Made by a program: the position numbers and the translations under genes
In this document: positions 9,120 through 59,580 of the stretch, one piece after another
Layout of the letters: each line of letters begins with the position of its first letter
How positions within the stretch are numbered: position 1 is the stretch's first letter
Source of the DNA: Okamejei kenojei
Taxonomy: Eukaryota
Reading direction: 5' to 3'
Assembly: GCA_035221665.1 (NCBI GenBank)
Contig: CM069135.1
Span: 75,082,001 to 75,146,000 of the forward strand
DNA: 64,000 nt
The notes under the pieces: model-generated
What the model was told of the DNA's origin: nothing
Database searches by the model: none
What the model saw: the letters and a program-made list of their open reading frames with translations, nothing else

Positions 9120-10530
9120 AAAGATGGAATAGCAGCACATTTGGAAAGTGGTGAAATCATTGGACAAATCATTTAATTTACAAGGTAAATCATGTCTGAC
9201 GAATCTTATAGAATCTTTCAAGAATGTAACTAGTAGAGTGGATAAGGAAGAACCAGTGGATGTGTTATATCTGGATTTTCAGAAGGCTTTCGACAAGGTC
9301 CCACATAAGAGATTAGTATGCAAACTAAAAGCACACAAGGTATTGGGGGTTCAGTATTGATGTGGATAGAGAACTGGCTGGCAGACAGGAAGCAAAGAGT
9401 AGGAGTAAACGGATCATTTTCAGAATGGCAGGCAGTGACTAGTGGGGTACCACAAAGCTCGGTGCTGGGACCCCAGCTATTTACAATATATATATATGAA
9501 TGATTTTGACGAGGGAATTGAATGCAACATCTCCAAGTTTGCAGATGACACAAAGCTGGGGGGCAGTGTTAGCTGTGAGGAGGATGCTAGGAGGCTGCAA
9601 GGTGACTTGGATAGGTTGGGTGAGTGGGCAAATGTTTGGCAGATGCAGTATAATGTGGATAAATGTGAGGTTATCCACTTTGGTGGCAAAAACAGGAAGT
9701 AGACTATTATTTGAATGGTGGCCGATTAGGAAAAGGGGAGATGCAACGAGACCTGGGTGTCATGGTACACCAGTCATTGAAAGTAGGCATGCAGGTGCAG
9801 CAGGCAGTGAAGGAAGCAAATGGTATGTTGGCATTCGTAGCAAAAGGATTTGAGTAGAGGAGCAGGGAGGTTCTACTGCAGTTGTACAGGGTCTTGGTGA
9901 GACCACACCTGGAGTATTGCATACAGTTTTGGTCTCCTAATCTGAGGAAAGACATTCTTGCCATAGAGGGGGTACAGAGAAGGTTCACCAGATTGATTCC
10001 TGGGATGTCAGGACTTTCATATGAAGAAAGACTGGATAGACTCGGCATGTACTCGCTAGAATTTAGAAGATTGAGGGGGGATCTTATAGAAACTTACAAA
10101 ATTCTTAAGGGGTTGGACAGGCTAGATGCAGGAAGATTGTTCCCGATGTTGGGGAAGTCCAGAACAAGGGGTCACAGTTTAAGGATAAGGGGGAAGTCTT
10201 GTAGGGCCGAGATGAGAAAAACATTTTTCACACAGAGAGTGGTGAATCTGTGGAATACGCTTTTTCGTTTTCCTCTGGGTATGCAAATACTCAGAAAAAT
10301 GATAATAAAGATATACAATACTCTGCCACAGAAGGTAGTTGAGGCCAGTTCATTGGCCTATATTTAAGAGGGAGTTAGATGTGGCCCTTGTGGCTAAGGG
10401 GATCGGGGGGTATGGAGAGAAGGCAGGTACAGGATACTGAGTTGGATGATCAGCCATGATCATATTGAATAGCGGTGCAGGTTCGAACGGCCTACTCCTG
10501 CACCTATTTTCCATGTTTTTATGTTTTTAT
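9120..10530 (+). mobile_element. CR1 LINE, 5'-truncated, with 3' UTR and (TATGTTT)n-like tail
   Basis: Motifs [23 protein letters not shown] and RPHLEYCIQFWSP, with frameshifts and stops. Confidence 0.92.
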
Positions 10531-15562: not shown

Positions 15563-16711
15563 TTAGACCTCAAGGTCATCTGGTCGAGGCCTGCTGCTTC
15601 CTCTACTGCTGGCTCTACTGGGAGGCCTCTGTTCCGTGAGACCAATTGGTTCCAGTTCTGTAACAGATGATAGCTTTTGCATGGTTGGATGTTCACCACG
15701 GAAATCAAACGCCTGTGCATGGCAGTTGGAAATGGTGCTACCAGCCTGACCGATCCGGTTTTGTTCTGTGCTATAATTTGCCCAGTTTTGTTCATTAGCT
15801 TGCTTATTGTAGCTTCGGCAAGAGGACATATTCCTGTCCCCGGTAGCAAGCTTGTATCCAGGAGGGGACATGGGTGCAGTTGGCGCGGAACACCCATTGA
15901 AATAGGCGTACTTCAATGCAGAGGCGTCTTTTAGAGTATTCAAGCCCATTTTTTGAGAGTCTTGAAATAAATTTCTATTCTTTTTGACATGGTCAGCTGT
16001 ACTTTTGAAGCCGATGTAGAACAGCTCTGCCACATTTAACATAGCTGACACAACGGATACCACCAGCATGAATATAACAAAGATGGTCTTCTCTGTGGGT
16101 CGTGACAGGAAGCAGTCTACTTTGTGTGGGCATGGATACCTCTCGCAGGTGTAAATAGCATTCAGTATGAATTTGAAATCATAAATGCACCATTGAGTTA
16201 ATATAAAAGCCACTTCGAAAATTATTTTAAAGATTATACTGACAGAATAAGTGCGCAAGAGGGATCCTTTAATTTTAATTCTGCCCTCCTCCTCCAGACC
16301 ATACTTAATTTTCTTTAGTTCTAATTGTTTCAAGTGCAGACCCACATCTTCACCACGTTCTTGGAGTGTCTTCAAATATGATTCCTTCTTAGATATTTTC
16401 TTCTCTTTGTGAGAGATACGAAAGACGTGGGCGAGGTAGACCAAAGTCGGTGTGGAGACAAAAATAAACTGAAGGACCCAGAATCGAAGGTGGGATATAG
16501 GAAAGGACTTGTCGTAGCAGACATTACCACAACCTGGTTGCAATGTGTTGCATGTGAACGCAGATTGTTCATCATTCCAGGCTGATTCCACCGCAGTGCC
16601 CAGCACCAAGAGACGGAAAATGAAGAGCACAGTGAGCCACACTTTACCTCCCGGAGTCAAATGTGACTGTACTTTATCCAATAGCTTTCCAAGGGCACTC
16701 CAGTCACCCAT
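15563..16711 (-). CDS. gja1: Gap junction alpha-1 (connexin 43)-type protein, 382 aa, single coding exon
   Basis: ORF begins [15 protein letters not shown]. It has the connexin Cys motifs ([14 protein letters not shown]; [12 protein letters not shown]), a PPGY motif, RASSR repeats and the C-terminal PDZ motif RPRPDDLEV typical of Cx43. A splice acceptor tttttacag| lies 16 nt upstream of the ATG (exon starts at 16727). Confidence 0.95.
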
Positions 16712-17679
16712 CTTGCTTTAGCTTTGGCTGTAAAAATAAGAGAACGACTGTGTCAATAGATTGTGAAGTTGCCAGATATGTTGGTTCATTTTAAAATATA
16801 GCTTAATTTGAATTTACATACTTTCTTTAATCATGATTTGACTGGTATGTATATTTTCAGCTCAACAGTGGAGTCAAAACCATTAAGCATTAATAACATT
16901 TCATGTATGTAGCCATTTAAAATGTGGTAGTGTAAAAAAGTTATGAGTAATTATTTGAAAGCAAACAAACCAATCATTTAAAGTGCCAGTCCTTTTAAAA
17001 TCAAAGTTTATCCATTCCGACAATTTAAAAATCTGAAGATAATTTGTTCTTTCAATGTATCTACTCAATTTGCTCTGAAATGATATGTAATTATATTTTA
17101 GTAAGCACTCATAAATATAATAAATATTTACAACAACCTAAAGTCATCTTTTACATAGCAACACATCCCATAATAATTCATGTGGGCATTAAAAGCAAAT
17201 GACACATCCATATAACGGTCTGATAATCAGGTGATATAGATATAGGGTTCTTTTTAAAACATCAAAGGAAAAAATAGTGGGTAGGAGGAGAGCTTTGGAA
17301 ACAAATTCCTGGGTTTTGGGCTTTGGCTGTTGAAGACAAGGCCAATTAAGGTGGAACACCAAAATCCAGGGATGAGCAACAGGCCAGAACTGAAATGGAC
17401 AAGTTGGGCCGAAGGGCCTGTTTAAAAGTTGTATGACTCTATGACTTCAGTGAAATTACAAAGAGAAAAGTAATGCCATGGATAAACTAAATGTTAAAAG
17501 ACAGCACCTTAACCAGGAGCAAGCAGTCAGGTGATGGGTGAACTATATTTGAGGTGACAGGGGTTTTGATGCTTGAACATAAAAAAATAAAACAGTGCAG
17601 GTACAGGAACACATCCTTCAACCCACCAATTATGATGCCAATTTTAAACTAATCCTATCTACGACATATCCCTCTATAT

Positions 17680-28949: not shown

Positions 28950-30003
28950 TAGAATTAGCCAGAAAAAGCAACCTACCAGAGGACTGGGAGAAATTCAGAG
29001 TCCAGCAGAGGGCAAAGGGCTTAATTAGGAAAGGGAAAATAGATTATGAAAGAAAACTGGCAGGGAACATAAAAACTGACTGCAAAAGATTTTGTAGATA
29101 TGTGAAGAGAAAAAGATTAGTTAAAACAAATGTAGGTCCCTTGCAGTCAGAAACAGGTGAATTGATCATGGGGAACAAGGACATGGCAGATCAATTGAAT
29201 AATTACTTTGGTTCTGTCTTCACTAAGGAAGACATAAATAATCTGCCGGAAATAGCAGGGGACCGAGGGCCAAATAAGATGGAAGAACTGAGTGAAATCC
29301 AGGTTAGCCGGGAAGTGGTATTGGGTAAATTGAATGGATTAAAGGCCGATAAATCCCTAGGGCCAGATAGGCTGCATCCCAGAGTGCTCAAGGAAGTAGC
29401 CACAGAAATAGTGGATGCATTAGTGATAATTTTTCAAAACTCTTTGGATTCTGGAGTAGTTCCTGAGGATTGGAGGGTAGCTAATGTAACCCCACTTTTT
29501 AAAAAAGGAGGGAGAGAGAAAACGGGGAATTACAGACCAGTTAGTCTAGCATCGGTAGTGTGGAAACTGCTAGAGTCAGTTATTAAAGATGGGATAGCAG
29601 CACATTTGGAAAGTGGTGAAATCATTGGACAAATTCAGCATGGATTTACGAAAGGTAAATCATGTCTGACGAATCTTATAGAATTTTTCAAGGATGTAAC
29701 TAGTAGAGTGGATAAGGGAGAACCAGTGGATGTGTTATATCTGGACTTCGACAAGGTCCCACATAAGAGATTAGTATACAAACTTAAAGCAACGGTATTG
29801 GGGGTTCAGTATTGATGTGGATAGAGAACTGGCTGGCAGACAGGAAGCAAAGGGTAGGAGTAAACGGGTCCTTTTCAGAATGGCAGGCAGTGACTAGTGG
29901 GGTACCGCAAGGCTCAGTGCTGGGACCCCAGCTATTTACAATATATATTAATGATTTGGACGAGGGAATTGAATGCAACATCTCCAAGTTTTCTATGTTT
30001 CTA
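28950..30003 (+). mobile_element. CR1 LINE with an internal deletion, nested in another CR1 3' end (28815-30260)
   Basis: ORF 29102-29815 includes GPDRLHPRVLKE, WRVANVTPLFKKG and GNYRPVSL. The sequence jumps from mid-RT directly to the ttctatgt tail. TGTAAC occurs at both flanks. Confidence 0.88.
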
Positions 30004-35805: not shown

Positions 35806-36684
35806 TTATCCTGCATTTTCTTTAATTTCCTCACTACCTTTCTCAATCCCATAATTAATGGTATTCTGAGACTTGGGATCCTGGCTATTGCATGGTTCTG
35901 TACTAAAAGGCTTCACTTTAGAACCTGATAGAGGTAAATCTTCAGTCAGCTTTGATTTATCAAAAGACTCAATAAATTGGGGATGGCCATGTTTTTGATA
36001 TTTCTGCGTTGAAATAGTTATTTGCTTGAAAACAAGGTAAACTATTTCAGCTATATTTAGAAGAAGTGACACACAAGCAACAGCCAGCATGAAAATGATG
36101 AAGATGGTTTTCTCTGTTGGACGTGAGATAAAACAATCTACGGTATGTGGACAGGGATATCTACTGCACACATACATGGGATCCAAAGAAAAGCCATAGA
36201 GATACCATTGACCCACAATGAAACCAATTTCAAGCAGAATTTTACACAAAACATGTAATATGTAGGTAAATAATAGGATTCCTTGTATTTTTACTTTTCC
36301 ATCCCTTACTATGTACTTTGATGTCTTCTTAACTTTTCTGAAGTTTTGTTCTTCAATTAATTTGTGTTGTCTTCTCTCCAAGTGGACAACATGTAAAGCA
36401 TGTCCAAGGTACAGCAAGGTAGGTGTTGAAACAAAAATGATCTGAAGAACCCAAAAGCGAATGTGAGAAATTGGAAAAGCTTTGTCATAGCAGACGTTTT
36501 CACAACCAGGTTGGCGTGTGTTGCAAAGGAAGCCAGACTGTTCATCACCCCAAACCTTCTCTGCAGCAGATCCAAGCAATAAGATCCTGAAGATAAATAA
36601 TACGGTGAGCCAGATTTTCCCAATCACTGTAGATTGTGCCTGGACTTTGTCCAGCAGTCTTCCAAGTAGAGTCCAATCCCCCAT
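35806..36684 (-). CDS. Second alpha-connexin, Cx32.2/Cx32.3-like, 292 aa, single coding exon
   Basis: [33 protein letters not shown] has both extracellular Cys motifs ([14 protein letters not shown]; [12 protein letters not shown]), a short cytoplasmic loop and a short tail. Acceptor ttggcag| lies 14 nt upstream of the ATG. The subtype is inferred from length and from linkage to gja1. Confidence 0.92.
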
Positions 36685-39080
36685 TCTTCAAAGTATACCT
36701 GCCAAATTAAACACATGCACAACTAAATGTACCTGCATTACAAACTGGATGTTAATCTTGTACTTTTTCATATAAGACTTTGGGATGGATATTTGCGAGA
36801 GCTGCCAGCCCTCACCTGTTATAACATCAACAAGGAAGCCATGGAAGCTCTGGAAAAATGCTCTAAATGATGAATGAAGATAGACCATGTGGAAATTCAG
36901 CCCCTGGAATATTTTCAACGTCTTTGAACTCTTTTTATTTTACGTTTTAGGTGCAGCATTTCACATATGTCAAAAATAATTTTACTGAATCAAACTTAAT
37001 GGATTGCTAAATTAGCAAATTTTAGAGATGGGGACAGGGAAACGGGACAAGTTAAAACATTTACATGAACCGACCGCGGTGGCTTTTTTGAGCCACAATT
37101 AATTACAAATTGAGAATAAGAATTTCAAATATAGGTCAAATTAAAGGTCAAGGATGCTGCGGTTTCCTTTTTCTATTCTTCAAATACTGGAATACTCTGC
37201 ACAACCCTGTAGGAGATTCTACATTTTTGTAAAACAGCAGCAAAGTAAGAAGGCAACTCAAAGGTAATTAGGGCAATTAGGTAGGGGTGAGTAATAAAGA
37301 TAGGTCTTCATAGCAATTGCCACATTCCATAAAATAATAAAATTACTGGTAACTGAGGTGCTGTACCTTGCTTATGAATGAGTATGACTATTCCACTATA
37401 CAAGGTATTCGCCTCAAGGTATGCAGCCTGCAGATGGGGACATTACAATAGGGCAGTTACCTAGTTTATGCAAGTCCTCCCTAAGTGTTTGCACACATTC
37501 ATACATAAGAACAGACCTGGATCGTCCTGGTCCATTGATCACTGCAATCAGTTATTAACAAAATGTATTCTTGTGATATTCTGTCATTAATGTGGGAAGA
37601 AGTTTCCTCTGTCAGAGATTATGTTTATTTTTATGGCACAGTAAGCACAAAATACAATTGATCCATCTATAATTTCACCAAACATTATAAACCAAAGCAT
37701 TGGTCTCAGATTTGGCTTAAAGGTTCTAGAAAGGACATACAACCTGACACTTGCCCAGAGAGAAAATCTATAATTTCATCAAAAGTTGCATCGTATCCAC
37801 AACTGGTCAAAAGGTTTTTCATAATTGTATTTTTAAGAAGGAACTGCAGACGGTGGAAAAATCAAAGGTGGGTAAAAATGCTGGAGAAACTCAGCAGGTG
37901 AGGCAGCATCTATGGAGCGAAGGAATTGGAGACGTTTCGGGTTGAGACCCTTCTTCAATCTGAAGAAGGGTCTCGGCCCAAAACGGCACCTATTCCTTTG
38001 CTGCATAGATGCTGCCTCACCAGCTGACTTTCTCCAGCATTTTTATCTACCTTCATAATTGTATTTGATCTGTTTACAAGAAACAAGGGAAAATGTTTGA
38101 ATATCGAACAACCAAATGAAAGCCAAAGGGCTTAATGTGAAATAATGTCAATTCACTCGAGTTGTTTTTATAAATGTTAAAATTAAATATGGCAGCCTGA
38201 TATCCCTGTAGCTCCTTCAATGAAAATTGTTTTTTTTAAGATTGAATAATCATCTAACTGTAAAATGCTTTGAAAATGTGTCAAGTGTAGCAGCTAGAGT
38301 GAAACAATAGACAATCAAACACAATAATATACTGCACAGACGATAAAGCATACAAAATCCTCCCAGGGTTCAACTAGTCAGATGGTGACAGTGAAGACCA
38401 TAACACAATAATGGCAAAGTCTAACTGATATTTAATCATTAAGGAAGTAAAAGATTTGTAAAAATGATCTGAAGTAAAGTAGGAACACCCATTGATCCAC
38501 CTGACATTGTGAACAGCTGTATCATTGATTAAAAAAACACACAGGGAAATGACAATGGTCTGACTTTGCTCAATAAATTGAAGGCAAATTGTTAGAAAAG
38601 TAGAAGAGCTAGCAATCTTGTCATTCTACCACAAGTATTAAGTAGTGATAGACTGCTCCTTTGCAGCCAAGCTACTTTCAAATTATGCCAGAAATCAGAT
38701 ACAGTCTAAACCTTCCAAACCTTCCAAAACTGACTGAATTTAGTGGCTAATACAGCTGCTCCATTTGGGTTTGGTCCCATCTCATGTGGAATAGACAACT
38801 TCTCTCACCATAGACAAAGAAGTACATAATTTAAGCTCGAGAAGAATTACATCATGTCTTACAAATACAATTATGCAAGTGCCAACTTCACAGTAGTGAG
38901 AACTACCCAAACCTGCATTCTTGACTCTATGTTATGAAATGGATAAAGAGGCACTAAAGAAGCTAGAGAAAAGATTTAAACATATTCAGAAATGAGAGTC
39001 ATGGGTATCAGAGATGAAGCAATTAAACTCGATAGAGTTTACAAGAATGAGGGGGTCCTCATTGAAACATACAGAATAGT

Positions 39081-54439: not shown

Positions 54440-56518
54440 ATTTTTTGTTTAATATTTTTATTAGAAGCATTGCATATTATCTAAGGTACAACAGCACTTC
54501 AAATACAAATCAGACTTATCACAAACATTGTACAGATATTATGGGATAATTTATATATGCTAATGTTTTTGATATTTTTTGGGAAGGTAAGGGAGTGAAA
54601 AAAAAAGTAAAAGTATAAATCAATAATCAAGACGTTGTGATTAAATAATAATGATTATATAATAAAAAAATAAAAAATAAAAAAACATATAATCAAGACG
54701 TTGTGATTAAATAATAATGATTATATAATAAAAAAAGAAAAAGTAAAAAAGAAAAGATAAACAAGAAAAATAAAAAAAAATAAAAACAGTTATTATATAA
54801 TTAAAAATTAAATAAAGGAATCTTTACATTGAATGGAACAGTTTTATATAACAATATCTATTGAGACAAGTATACAGATCCCAATACTTCTTTCATCTAA
54901 TCCTACACCAGGGTACTTATTGAGTTACAGTGCTGAGCTCAGCTACCCCTTTAAGTAATCAATGAATGGAGACCATATTTGTTCAAAAAAATCATATTTG
55001 TCCATTAGGACAAACCTAATTCTCTCCAAATGCAATGTCACCGACATTTCCACAGTCCACATTTTGATTGTGGGGGATAATGTTCCCTTCCAGAATTTTA
55101 ATATTAATTTTTTTCCAATTATCAAACAGTAATCAAGAAAATTTATTTGACTTACAGTTAATATTAAGCTTGAGTCAGGGACTCCTAATATTATTAACTT
55201 TAGATCAGGGTCCAATTTAGTTTTAAGAACCTCAGAGATGATTCCAAAAATATCAGCCCAATAACTATTAAGTTTTATGCATGTTACAAAACTATGCGTT
55301 AAGTTGGCTTCTAAATTCTGACATTTGTCGCAAATAGAACAAATGTTAGGAAAAATTCTATTTAATTTTGTTTTTGAGTAGTGTAATCTATGTATTACTT
55401 TAAATTGTACCAAAATATGTCTGGCATTTAATGAGCATCCGTGTGTACGTTGTAAACTTTCTTCCCAAGTGTCTTTCATTATAGATAGACCTATTTCATT
55501 TTCCCATATCTGTCGGTATGATTCTGTTGTTGGGACTTACCTATCCAAAAGAGTATTATATATGCACACTATTAATTTTTCTGTATTTGGGTGCTTGTTA
55601 AGCCACTCATCCAATAATCCTGGCTCTCTATTCTTATAGTCTTGCATGTTTGACTTGATATAGTCTCTAATTTGTAAATACCTGAACAAGTTATTTGGGT
55701 GTAATCCATAGATATCTTTTAATTCTTGAAATGATGTAAAGGTGTTCTATCCTTATAATTCCTAAATTTTTCCAGTGTCTAAACCCCTTTTCCAATATAG
55801 AAGGTTTAAATTTTATTCATAATTGGTAAACAGAGTGACATATTATCCAGATGTAAAGTCTTAACTATTTGTATATTAGCAACGTATATTGCTATAAATT
55901 ATAGGGTTATCCCCGTAAGTTTTTTTTTGTACTTCACTTGGAACAAGAAGAATCGAACTTATATCAAATGGTAAACAGTCTTCCATTTCCATCTTTAGCC
56001 AAGCTGGTTCCTGGTCCATTTTTACCAGCCAAAAATTCATATTCTTAATCTGAACCGCCCAAAAATAATATAAAAAATTAGGTAACGCTAATCCTCCATT
56101 TATCTTGGATTTACATAAATGTTTTTTACTTATTCTGTGATTTTTATAATCCCAAATAAAGCTGTTAATAATAGAATCGATTTTATTGAAAACAAATTTT
56201 GGGAGATATAAAGGGATAGTTTGAAATAAATATAATAATTGCGGTAAAAAGACCATTTTTATAGCATTTATTCTGCAAATCATTGATATTGGTAGTGTTT
56301 TCCAGTATAAAATATTCTTTTTTAGTTCATCCAATAACTGAGGGTAATTTAATTTGAATAATAGATTATAAGATTTAGATACATTAATTCCTAGGTATTT
56401 AAATTTACCCGTAACTATTTTAAACGGAAATTGTTGTAATATGTTTACTTTTATTCCAGTTATAGGCATGATTTCACTTTTATTCCAATTAATTCTATAT
56501 CCTGAAAATGTACCCAAA
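54440..56518 (-). mobile_element. L1-clade LINE, 5'-truncated
   Basis: GYRINWNKSE, FKYLGI, GGLALPN and a C-terminal CCHC motif (CDKC...H...C). A-rich tail. 15-bp TSD ATCTCAAAAATTATT (54425-54439 / 56519-56533). Confidence 0.92.
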
Positions 56519-56778
56519 ATCTCAAAAATTATTTGGAAAAAGAAGGGAGTGAGACAATGTCGGTTGAAGGTTTCAAGTATAGAGTGAATTTGTAACTTTG
56601 TGAGATCTCAGGCAAGTCAAAGCAAAAGAGGGAAATGGGACAAGCCGTAGAAAACATATTTTAATAAGCCACATTGACAACTTCAAGAGCATTACTTTGT
56701 TGTACCGAGTGAAACACCCAATTAAGAGAAGACAGGAAACTTTAACACAGCATCACCATATCGTAACTTTGAATGAGA

Positions 56779-58168
56779 TATAGAATCATAGAAAATAGGT
56801 GCAGGAGTAGGCCATTCGGCCCTTCGAGCCTGCACCGCCATTCAATGTGATCATGGCTGATCATCCAACTCAGTATCCTGTACCTGCCTTCTCTCCATAC
56901 CTCCCGATCCCTTCAGCCACAAGGGCCACATCCAACTCCCTCCTAAATATAGCCAATGAACTGGCCTCACCTACCCTCTGTGGCAGAGAACTCCACAGAC
57001 TCACCACTCTCTGTGTGAAAAATGATCTTCTCATTTCGGTCCTAAAAGACCTCCCCCTTATCCTCAAACTGCGACCCCCCGTTCTGGAGTTCCCCAACAT
57101 CGGGAACAATCTTCCTGCATCTAGCCTGTCCAACCCCTCGAGAATTTTCTAAGTCTCTATAAGATCCCCCCTCAATCTCCCAAATTCCAGCGAGTACAAG
57201 CCGAGTCTATCCAGTCTTTCTTCATATGGAAGTCCTGCCATCCCAGGAATAAGTCTTGTGAATCTTCTCTGTACTCCCTCCATGGCAAGAATGTCCCTCC
57301 TCAGATTAGGACACCAAAACTGTACACAACACTCCAGGTGTGGCCCCACCAAGGCCCTGTACAACTGCAGTAGTACCTCCCTGCTCTTGTACTCAAATCC
57401 TTTTGCTATGAATGCCAACATACCATTCGCCTTCTTCACAGCCTGCTGCACCTGCATGCCTACTTTCAATGACTGGTGCACCATGACACCCAGTTCCCGT
57501 TGCATCTCCCCTTTTCCCAATCGGCCACCGTTCAGATAATAGTCCACCCTCCCGTTTTTGCCGCCAAAGTGGACAACCTCACATTACACTGCATCTGCCA
57601 TGCACCTGCCCACTCACCCAACCTATCCAAGTCACCTTGCAGCCTCCCAGCATCCTCCTCACAGCTAACACTGCCCCCCAGCTTCGTGTCATCCGCAAAC
57701 TTGGAGATGTTGCATTCAATTCCCTCATCCAGATCATCAATATATATTGTAAATAGCTGGGGTCCCAGCACTGAGCCCTGCGGCACCCCACCAGTCACTG
57801 CCTGCCATTCTGAAAATGACCCGTCTACTCCTACTCTCTGCCTCCTATCTGCCAGCCAGTTCTCTATCCACATCAACACTGAACCCCCAAATACCGTGTG
57901 CTTTAAGTATGAATGCCAATCTCTTATGTGGGACCCTGTCGAAAGCCCTCTGAAAGTCCAGATATAACACATCCACAGGTTCTCCCTTATCCACTCCACC
58001 AGTTACATCCTCGAAAAATTCTACAAGATTCGTCAGACATGATTTACCTTTCATAAATCCATGCTGACTTTGTCCAATGACTTCACCACTTTCCAAATGT
58101 GCTGCTATCCCATCTTTACTAACCGACTCTAGCATTTTCCCCACTACCGATGTTAGACCAACTGGTCT
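56779..58168 (-). mobile_element. CR1 LINE copy with strand-specific A>G hypermutation
   Basis: Colinear with the CR1 at 9120-10530 but carries many A>G differences on the element's sense strand (see findings). Confidence 0.92.
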
Positions 58169-58202
58169 CTATATGTGGAGACTAGAGACATAGATATAAA
58201 AG

Positions 58203-59412
58203 GGGTGGCAACGTGGCGCGGCAGTAGAGTTGCTGCCTTACCGTTTGAGAGACCCAGGTTTGATCCTGACTATGGATGATGTCCGTGCAGAGTTTGTACG
58301 TTAAATACTTGGGTATTCAATCACCAGAAGATATCAAGACATGTTTAATGCAAACTATAACCCTGTACTTAAGAAACTTAATTTAATTAATTTAATTCTG
58401 GAAAACGCTTCCGATGTCCTTAATGGGCCGAATAAATGCTATAAAAATGATTTTTTTTACCACAAATCATATACCTGTTCCAATCAATCCTAATATACCT
58501 ACCCAAAAAGTTAAAAAAAAATTGGACTCAGATATCACAAATTTTATTTGGGATTATAAGTCCCATAGAATACAAAGACCACACCTGAATGAACCCAAAG
58601 TAGTAGGGGGATTAGCACTCCCTAATTTTATGTATTACAATTGGTCTGTAAATATCAGAAATATGATTCATTTGTTGGATAACTCTCCTCATCAACCGGA
58701 GTGGATCATTATGGAGAAAGAGGACTGCTCCCCTTTTAATATTGGCACGATCCTTCTCTCACCAATGACGGTGAATAATACAAATTACAACAAAAATCCA
58801 ATTATACTTAGTACAATCAGAATTTGGAAACTAATAAAATATATCAACATTAAATATGTGGATTTCAACTATGTTTGAAACACTACATCTGGAAGATATG
58901 AGACTCTGCCTGGCAGGAAAATCAGATCGTTTCTATCAGACGTGGTCTGCATTTCTAGGGTCTATCTCTTAATCCCCTTTCTATAACTCTTTGACCAAGT
59001 GGTTTTTTTTTCTCCCCTTTGGCACTCTCACTTTCACAACTCTTTTCACCTACTTCACTCTCTTTGTTTCTATTCTCTTTCTTTAAAAGCCATAAAATTA
59101 TGGGGTACAATGATTGTAACAATATATACGTGATGTACACTGATGTATTTACCTCTATTAAATACAATTTTTTTTTTTTTAATTAAAAAAAAGAGTTTGT
59201 ACGTTCTCCCTGTGACCACAAGGGTTTTCTCCGGGTGCTCTGGTTTCCCCCCACAATCCAAAGGCGTACAGGTTTGTAGGTTTGTAATTGGCTTCTGTAC
59301 TTTGTAAATTGTTCCTAGTGTTGGATAGTGCTAGTGTATGGGGTTATCGCTGGTGGGCGCTGGCTCAGTTGGCTGAAGGGCCTGTTTCAGCACTGTATCT
59401 CTAAAGCCTAAA
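58203..59412 (+). mobile_element. tRNA-SINE interrupted by an internally deleted L1 fragment (58303-59191)
   Basis: The L1 peptide SLMGRINAIKM...GGLALPNF is followed by a poly(A) end. 14-bp TSD AGAGTTTGTACGTT (58289-58302 / 59192-59205). Confidence 0.85.
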
Positions 59413-59580
59413 GTCTTTATCCTGCATGGCAATGGCATTTGGGAAGAATCTGTCGGAGATTTCTTCCAACTATTTTTAATCGGACTTTACTAGACTTTGT
59501 CTTGCACTGTACATTATACTGTGTGGAATGTGCTTCCAGCAGAAGTGGCGGAGGCAGGATCGATTTTAACATTTAAGAGT

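Follow-up and report, generated by a model that had tools for sequence, protein, structure and literature searches.

We have analyzed a CR1 LINE copy that carries a heavy and nearly pure load of A>G changes on its sense strand. The copy lies in a window of 64,000 nucleotides of Okamejei kenojei DNA, the whole stretch analysed here. Relative to the commonest letter in each column of 59 other copies (60 aligned pieces), which served as the yardstick, 45 of the 402 As of the focal copy have become G and only 3 of the 345 Ts have become C. The neighbours of the changed As follow the order published for ADAR enzymes, and the copy bears the marks of target-primed reverse transcription. Judged from these features of the sequence, the copy probably derives from a CR1 RNA that was hyper-edited by ADAR as dsRNA and was afterwards reverse-transcribed into germline DNA. 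An earlier note on this DNA, made from the letters alone, had proposed an ADAR-edited LINE RNA written into the genome and had read it as a possible footprint of an ADAR-based restriction of LINEs; the first of these proposals is supported by the present analysis, while the second is not.

The element and its insertion

The features of the focal copy are collected in Table 1. The copy is 1.39 kb long and, with its flanking target duplications, spans 56776-58198 on the minus strand, corresponding to G000:C5:75138776-75140198; it is broken by an insertion of 1 bp and a deletion of 10 bp. An unbroken relative (L017) matches the Pfam accession RVT_1 with an E value of 4e-32, and its named top protein matches are reverse transcriptase proteins of birds, turtles and batoids, with 82% to a Leucoraja protein. 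These protein matches bear no CR1 label, and the assignment to CR1 is based, by similarity search, on an RT domain related to vertebrate CR1 ORF2 and on a 3' hairpin followed by ATTCTRTG octamers, the CR1 octamer motif as given in PMC8665684 (also PMC4316615). Homologues carry PF14529/PF03372; a full-length CR1 would have endonuclease and RT in one ORF, but the focal copy is 5'-truncated. The 136-nt end of the copy has a predicted fold with a z score of -1.8. The family is large: at least 43,838 copies, counted as matches to one 24-base 3' pattern, are evenly divided between the strands.

Table 1. Coordinates in the window of the focal CR1 copy, its parts and the copies used for comparison.
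Feature	Position	Strand	Basis
CR1 LINE copy, subfamily A, 5'-truncated (3' part of ORF2 with RT domain, and 3' UTR)	56783..58168	-	alignment
Target-site duplication, 3' copy, TATATCT (7 bp)	56776..56782	-	
Microsatellite tail of CR1 octamers (ATTCTATG type), sharing its final 3 bases with the target duplication	56780..56793	-	
CR1 3' hairpin, GGUGCAGG pairing with CCUGCACC; unedited	56798..56836	-	predicted fold
45 A>G changes (T>C on the + strand)	56905..58159	-	site list
5'-junction filler, 23 nt; short reverse-complement patches of the junction	58169..58191	-	
Target-site duplication, 5' copy, TATATCT (7 bp)	58192..58198	-	
Comparison copy, sister subfamily B, unedited	9120..10530	+	
Comparison copy (portion overlapping the focal copy), sister subfamily C, unedited	29531..29991	+	

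The tail, the truncation and the target duplication are those of target-primed reverse transcription. Since a tail together with a target duplication at both ends indicates direct insertion from an RNA template, it is certain that the copy arose by direct retrotransposition and thus passed through an RNA intermediate. A search for the source of the filler found no exact match elsewhere in the genome and one other match, with 2 mismatches. The 3' junction is spanned at single-copy depth, with 2 and 3 other letters respectively, in DNA contigs of runs X1 and X3, which come from two studies; the insertion is therefore common to more than one sample. In four runs the interior of the element was covered by no contig of more than 60 bases, and none of the contigs listed spans the 5' junction; the best run contained only 0.51 of the words, and such contigs drop rare variants, so this is no negative result for the Gs. 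A 56-base contig of single-copy depth in run X6 matches 56876-56932, but since its sequence is found in other copies as well it was left out of the count. The junction motif had 0 matches among metagenome contigs, an uninformative result.

Two connexin ORFs are found in the window, at 15563-16717 (-) and 35806-36687 (-), of which the first matches Connexin43; the second has the orientation of the focal copy and is situated 20 kb downstream of it. Directly beside the focal copy, a SINE-like element at 58199-59420 (+) is interrupted by an insert of ~0.9 kb with an A-rich run at its end. This insert is bounded by a 13-bp duplication (58290-58302 and 59193-59205) and is 67% alike, in inverted orientation, to 55946-56313.

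Number, distribution and context of the A>G changes

The count against the 59 copies bears out the rough figure of about 50 sense-strand A>G changes with few T>C that had been estimated by eye. Besides these, the same comparison gives 3 G>A and 2 C>T for the focal copy, together with 10 transversions that include the junction base. An APOBEC-type excess of sense-strand G>A is absent (3 of 431 Gs), and ordinary decay since insertion amounts to ~1.2%. The background was taken from 165 other copies (151,223 columns), in which A>G affects 0.90% of As and T>C 0.77% of Ts; these copies were mostly picked by similarity or bait, with only 30 loci picked by position, and the sample leans young. At the 0.9% background rate about 3.6 A>G changes are expected in the focal copy (binomial p = 4e-34), and the next most extreme of the background copies has p = 0.007. 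A>G and T>C, whose possible symmetry had been raised in the earlier note, are strongly asymmetric (Fisher p = 6e-10). The changes are also unusually pure, as 45 of the 46 changes at A go to G, versus 402 of 791 in the background (p = 9e-12). They are spread evenly over 1255 nt, between element positions 13 and 1267 (KS test against a uniform distribution, p = 0.93); the last 31 As of the element are all unchanged, a gap that is not significant. Forty codons are hit, with the amino acid altered in 27 of them, and the seven replacements named beforehand (N>S, K>R, K>E, H>R, R>G, Y>C and I>M) are all present.

The family holds at least three subfamilies (A, B and C), and the focal copy fits subfamily A at 19/19 diagnostic columns. 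The two window copies to which it had been compared by eye, taken as siblings of one subfamily, belong instead to B (the 9120 copy) and C (the 29531 copy). The second of these, given in the earlier note as 28950-30003, overlaps the first 475 nt only. In a pairwise alignment of 1323 columns with the 9120 copy, the focal copy has 115 mismatches, of which 61 are A>G, 14 T>C and 10 G>A. Four of its 45 Gs (positions 255, 388, 1239 and 1258) are the normal subfamily C letter, and the remaining 41 are private or nearly so; a multi-copy subfamily with the same Gs, one other origin that had been envisaged for them, was not found. The five example sites of the earlier note all read as quoted, but at position 993, the second G of aattTGGGag, subfamily A normally has G and no edit is involved, and the G of gagtTGGatgtgg is one of the four that are also normal in C.

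No copy among the first 59 has more than 3 of the 45 Gs, and none among the copies listed later has more than 7, mostly subfamily C letters. The nearest sub-lineage copy (L014) has 4 non-edit variants in common with the focal copy and 1 of its 45 Gs. The top genomic matches to the two halves of the element are 94-95% identical, among 40 candidates scored of 13,017 and 8,853. When the four subfamily C sites are omitted, 41 sites are left, the signal persists (p = 2e-6) and every test is still significant. The diagnostic columns beside the four C-like Gs follow A, so that only at positions 1239 and 1258 is a short conversion by a subfamily C copy conceivable.

The chance that an A was changed depends strongly on its neighbours. 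By 5' base, the changed fraction is 21/82 after T (26%), 17/94 after A (18%), 5/90 after C (6%) and 2/128 after G (1.6%), with a chi-square p of 8e-8. With a 3' G it is 26/138 versus 19/256 otherwise (p = 0.0013), which was summarised as a threefold enrichment. This is the published order for ADAR: ADAR1 and ADAR2 are described as preferring U>A>C>G on the 5' side and G first on the 3' side (Eggington 2011, PMC3113232), and depletion of 5' G served as an ADAR mark in the analysis of Zaranek 2010 (PMC2873906). The ADAR neighbour preference that the earlier note expected is thus strong, although the TAG and AAG contexts, to which it had assigned most sites, make up 21/45, slightly below half. 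The WA motif holds 38/45 sites, and within WA a 3' G remains enriched (21/63 versus 17/113, p = 0.007). In the 165 background copies the context is flat (1.02% after 5' T and 0.93% after 5' G) and A>G hardly exceeds T>C, so that no low-level editing of ordinary copies is seen in this sample. An ADAR bias in the subfamily-defining changes was rejected, with 9 derived A>G versus 9 T>C in A and C (measured against a thin outgroup), and so was hypermutation of TpA on both strands, since T>C is not raised.

Origin of the changes

The directly observed counts, strand bias, context, 41 private Gs, insertion hallmarks and ADAR-family genes of this genome are the basis on which we favour editing of the RNA before insertion. 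A subfamily A transcript would have formed a duplex of 1.25 kb or more, its partner being antisense CR1 RNA or an inverted copy within the transcript itself; such a length is suggested by the extension of the editing across 1.25 kb. ADAR would then have deaminated ~11% of the As of the transcript, and the duplex, weakened by the editing, may have separated. The ORF2 protein would have primed at the 3' end, where hairpin and tail were intact, and copied inosine as G; the unedited state of hairpin and tail fits such priming. Synthesis would have halted after 1.39 kb, the junction being closed with the 23-nt filler and the 7-bp duplication. The sense-strand direction of the A>G changes points to inosine in the RNA template, as deamination of the first cDNA strand would yield T>C. 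An event of this kind is a rare accident rather than a routine defence.

Five loci with an adenosine-deaminase domain (PF02137) are found in the genome, on G000:C1, C2, C7, C17 and C41 (L160-L170). The deaminase exons at C2 and C7 contain the HAE motif, and we take these two loci to be ADAR2- and ADAR3-like; those at C1 and C41 have HAV/HAA instead and presumably encode ADAD-like proteins. No ADAR1 ortholog was identified among the five loci. Counting against the editing of LINE RNA, Orecchini 2017 (PMC5224506) transfected human L1 and saw no editing of its RNA over a stretch exceeding 2.5 kb. Elsewhere on G000:C1, two opposed CR1 copies (L103/L104, 594559-598198) have their 3' ends ~600 bases apart, a layout capable of forming dsRNA.

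It is improbable that the Gs are an artefact of assembly or polishing, introduced by RNA-derived data or a systematic error where the chromosome has A. Host transcripts with inverted CR1 copies are natural ADAR targets, and the G alleles were not seen in the independent DNA contigs, which drop rare variants. However, the changes are limited to the element, and the inverted partners in the window and other repeats are unskewed. Nor is any skew seen in six neighbouring CR1 pieces or in the adjoining SINE half, and this speaks against RNA polishing or an error of local extent; two L1-like flanks and the SINE half at 58199-58303 have too few relatives for scoring. The changes also occupy one strand with an even spread across the 1255 nt, and the common sequencing-error cluster is described as G-to-A (Zaranek 2010, PMC2873906). 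We attach an equally low probability to an action of ADAR after the insertion. The enzyme could have worked on the sense strand of the DNA while antisense CR1 RNA formed an R-loop there, or it could have edited a host transcript, the cDNA of which overwrote the locus. Strand and context would be identical, ADAR is active on DNA:RNA hybrids, the two connexin ORFs lie on the same strand 20-40 kb downstream, and inverted CR1 copies lie 27 and 47 kb off. Reverse transcription of edited RNA at a target site has been argued for cancer genomes, as presented in PMC11817618. Such a course nevertheless requires a 1.25-kb tract that is bounded by the element and evades repair; it is not seen in any other copy, and an RNA intermediate is already certain.

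The misplacement of G opposite template T during second-strand synthesis, by an error-prone polymerase (Pol eta type, with its WA motif) or under dATP shortage, is quite unlikely. The strand is compatible with second-strand synthesis, but Pol eta errors are of mixed classes, whereas here nearly all changes at A are to G and the other classes are not raised. A rate of 11% per A would be very high for a polymerase, and the enrichment of 3' G persists even within WA. The predominance of WA sites does fit this explanation, the motif being common to ADAR1 and Pol eta (PMC11817618). An origin in a separate G-rich subfamily, in mosaic or GC-biased gene conversion, or in CpGs retained from the ancestor agrees with the four Gs that equal the subfamily C letter, but is extremely improbable for the element as a whole: the diagnostic sites are all those of A, the other Gs are private or nearly so, a 5' C is present at only 5 sites, T>C is not raised and the best matches reach 94-95%. 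For the 41 sites this explanation is already largely refuted.

Known systems and frequency of edited copies

ADAR-type edits are recorded in DNA by way of reverse transcription in the A-to-G hypermutated proviruses of avian leukosis and spleen necrosis viruses. These are LTR retroviruses, whereas the focal copy is a non-LTR, target-primed insertion that is edited along nearly its whole length. A further likeness is to APOBEC "DNA editing", whose G>A fossils are established in LTR elements (Knisbacher and Levanon 2016, PMC4866542). In both cases a retroelement intermediate is deaminated and the changes are germline-fixed and specific to strand and context; APOBEC, however, converts C to U on cDNA, giving G>A, while the sense-strand A>G of the focal CR1 points to RNA. 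In the lizard, G>A is reported in 85/32,872 L1 copies, and the lizard CR1 data described there are without a G>A signal (Lindic 2013, PMC3880073). The 2016 screen (PMC4866542) deals with LTR elements and DNA transposons and calls other types of cluster negligible.

Another resemblance in pattern is to ADAR hyper-editing of repeat and viral dsRNA (PMC3113232, PMC2873906 and the Sanjuan review, PMC5075021), with its A>G clusters, depletion of 5' G, 5' order U>A>C>G and 3' G. That pattern is normally found in RNA, whereas the focal one sits in a genome assembly; in the account of Zaranek 2010 (PMC2873906), A-to-G is not over-represented in high-quality DNA traces. ADAR1 also meets LINE RNA in the restriction of human LINE-1, which is editing-independent according to Orecchini 2017 (PMC5224506), with L1 editing undetected; the editing of the focal copy is by contrast heavy and did not stop integration. 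The role of ADAR in the evolution of retrotransposons, or in their suppression by mutation, is called undetermined in the Goodier 2016 review (PMC4982230). No description of a genomic ADAR-edited LINE was found in the mostly open-access literature searched, beyond which such a case may exist, and none appears in the available text of PMC5974252, PMC5075021 or PMC11817618.

Six baits, each requiring two A>G changes at favoured sites, gave 70 matches (3, 43, 2, 9, 12 and 1), in which the focal copy appears twice; the 1229/1239 bait is diluted by the G that is normal for subfamily C at 1239. No hyper-edited copy is present among the other 68 matches, two of which have little power, the alignment being just 66 columns long for L128 and 100 for L150. 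The A>G-skewed outliers that the earlier note proposed to look for among CR1 copies thus have no comparable representative in this set. The frequency of comparable copies has a rough 95% bound of less than about 1 in 3,700, with the coverage taken from 30 position-chosen copies. A sizeable class of edited copies is not supported. A restriction footprint fares no better, given that edited copies are very rare, that the RNA integrated despite its editing and that the subfamily changes are unbiased. The measured rarity means that almost no trace of editing is left in this CR1 family, where it does not act as a major mutational defence.

If the focal copy does record RNA editing, LINE RNA rich in inosine can serve as a template for reverse transcription and its product can be inherited, and sense-strand A>G with depletion of 5' G offers a simple screen for any genome. 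More tentatively, and with the odds somewhat against it, germline-edited LINE RNA may enter vertebrate genomes via target-primed reverse transcription as a small overlooked class, of which the focal copy would be the extreme and which would include short patches (L142 being a candidate); LINE copies might then serve as a datable record of dsRNA editing and reveal a route of mutation from RNA to DNA.

A few small groups of A>G changes were noticed in other copies. L142 (G000:C21:11739950-11742974), of subfamily A, has six within 33 bases, two of them bait-selected and the context less typical, and is possibly a short edited patch. L143 (G000:C21:13043814-13046838), also of subfamily A, has three within 5 bases; L142 and L143 have three A>G sites in common, two of them bait-selected. 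L178 and L180, which were picked for similarity to the focal copy and are hence biased, have three A>G changes within 25 bases in common, in AAG, TAG and TAC contexts, and L178 has six in 548 bases, five of which follow T or A.
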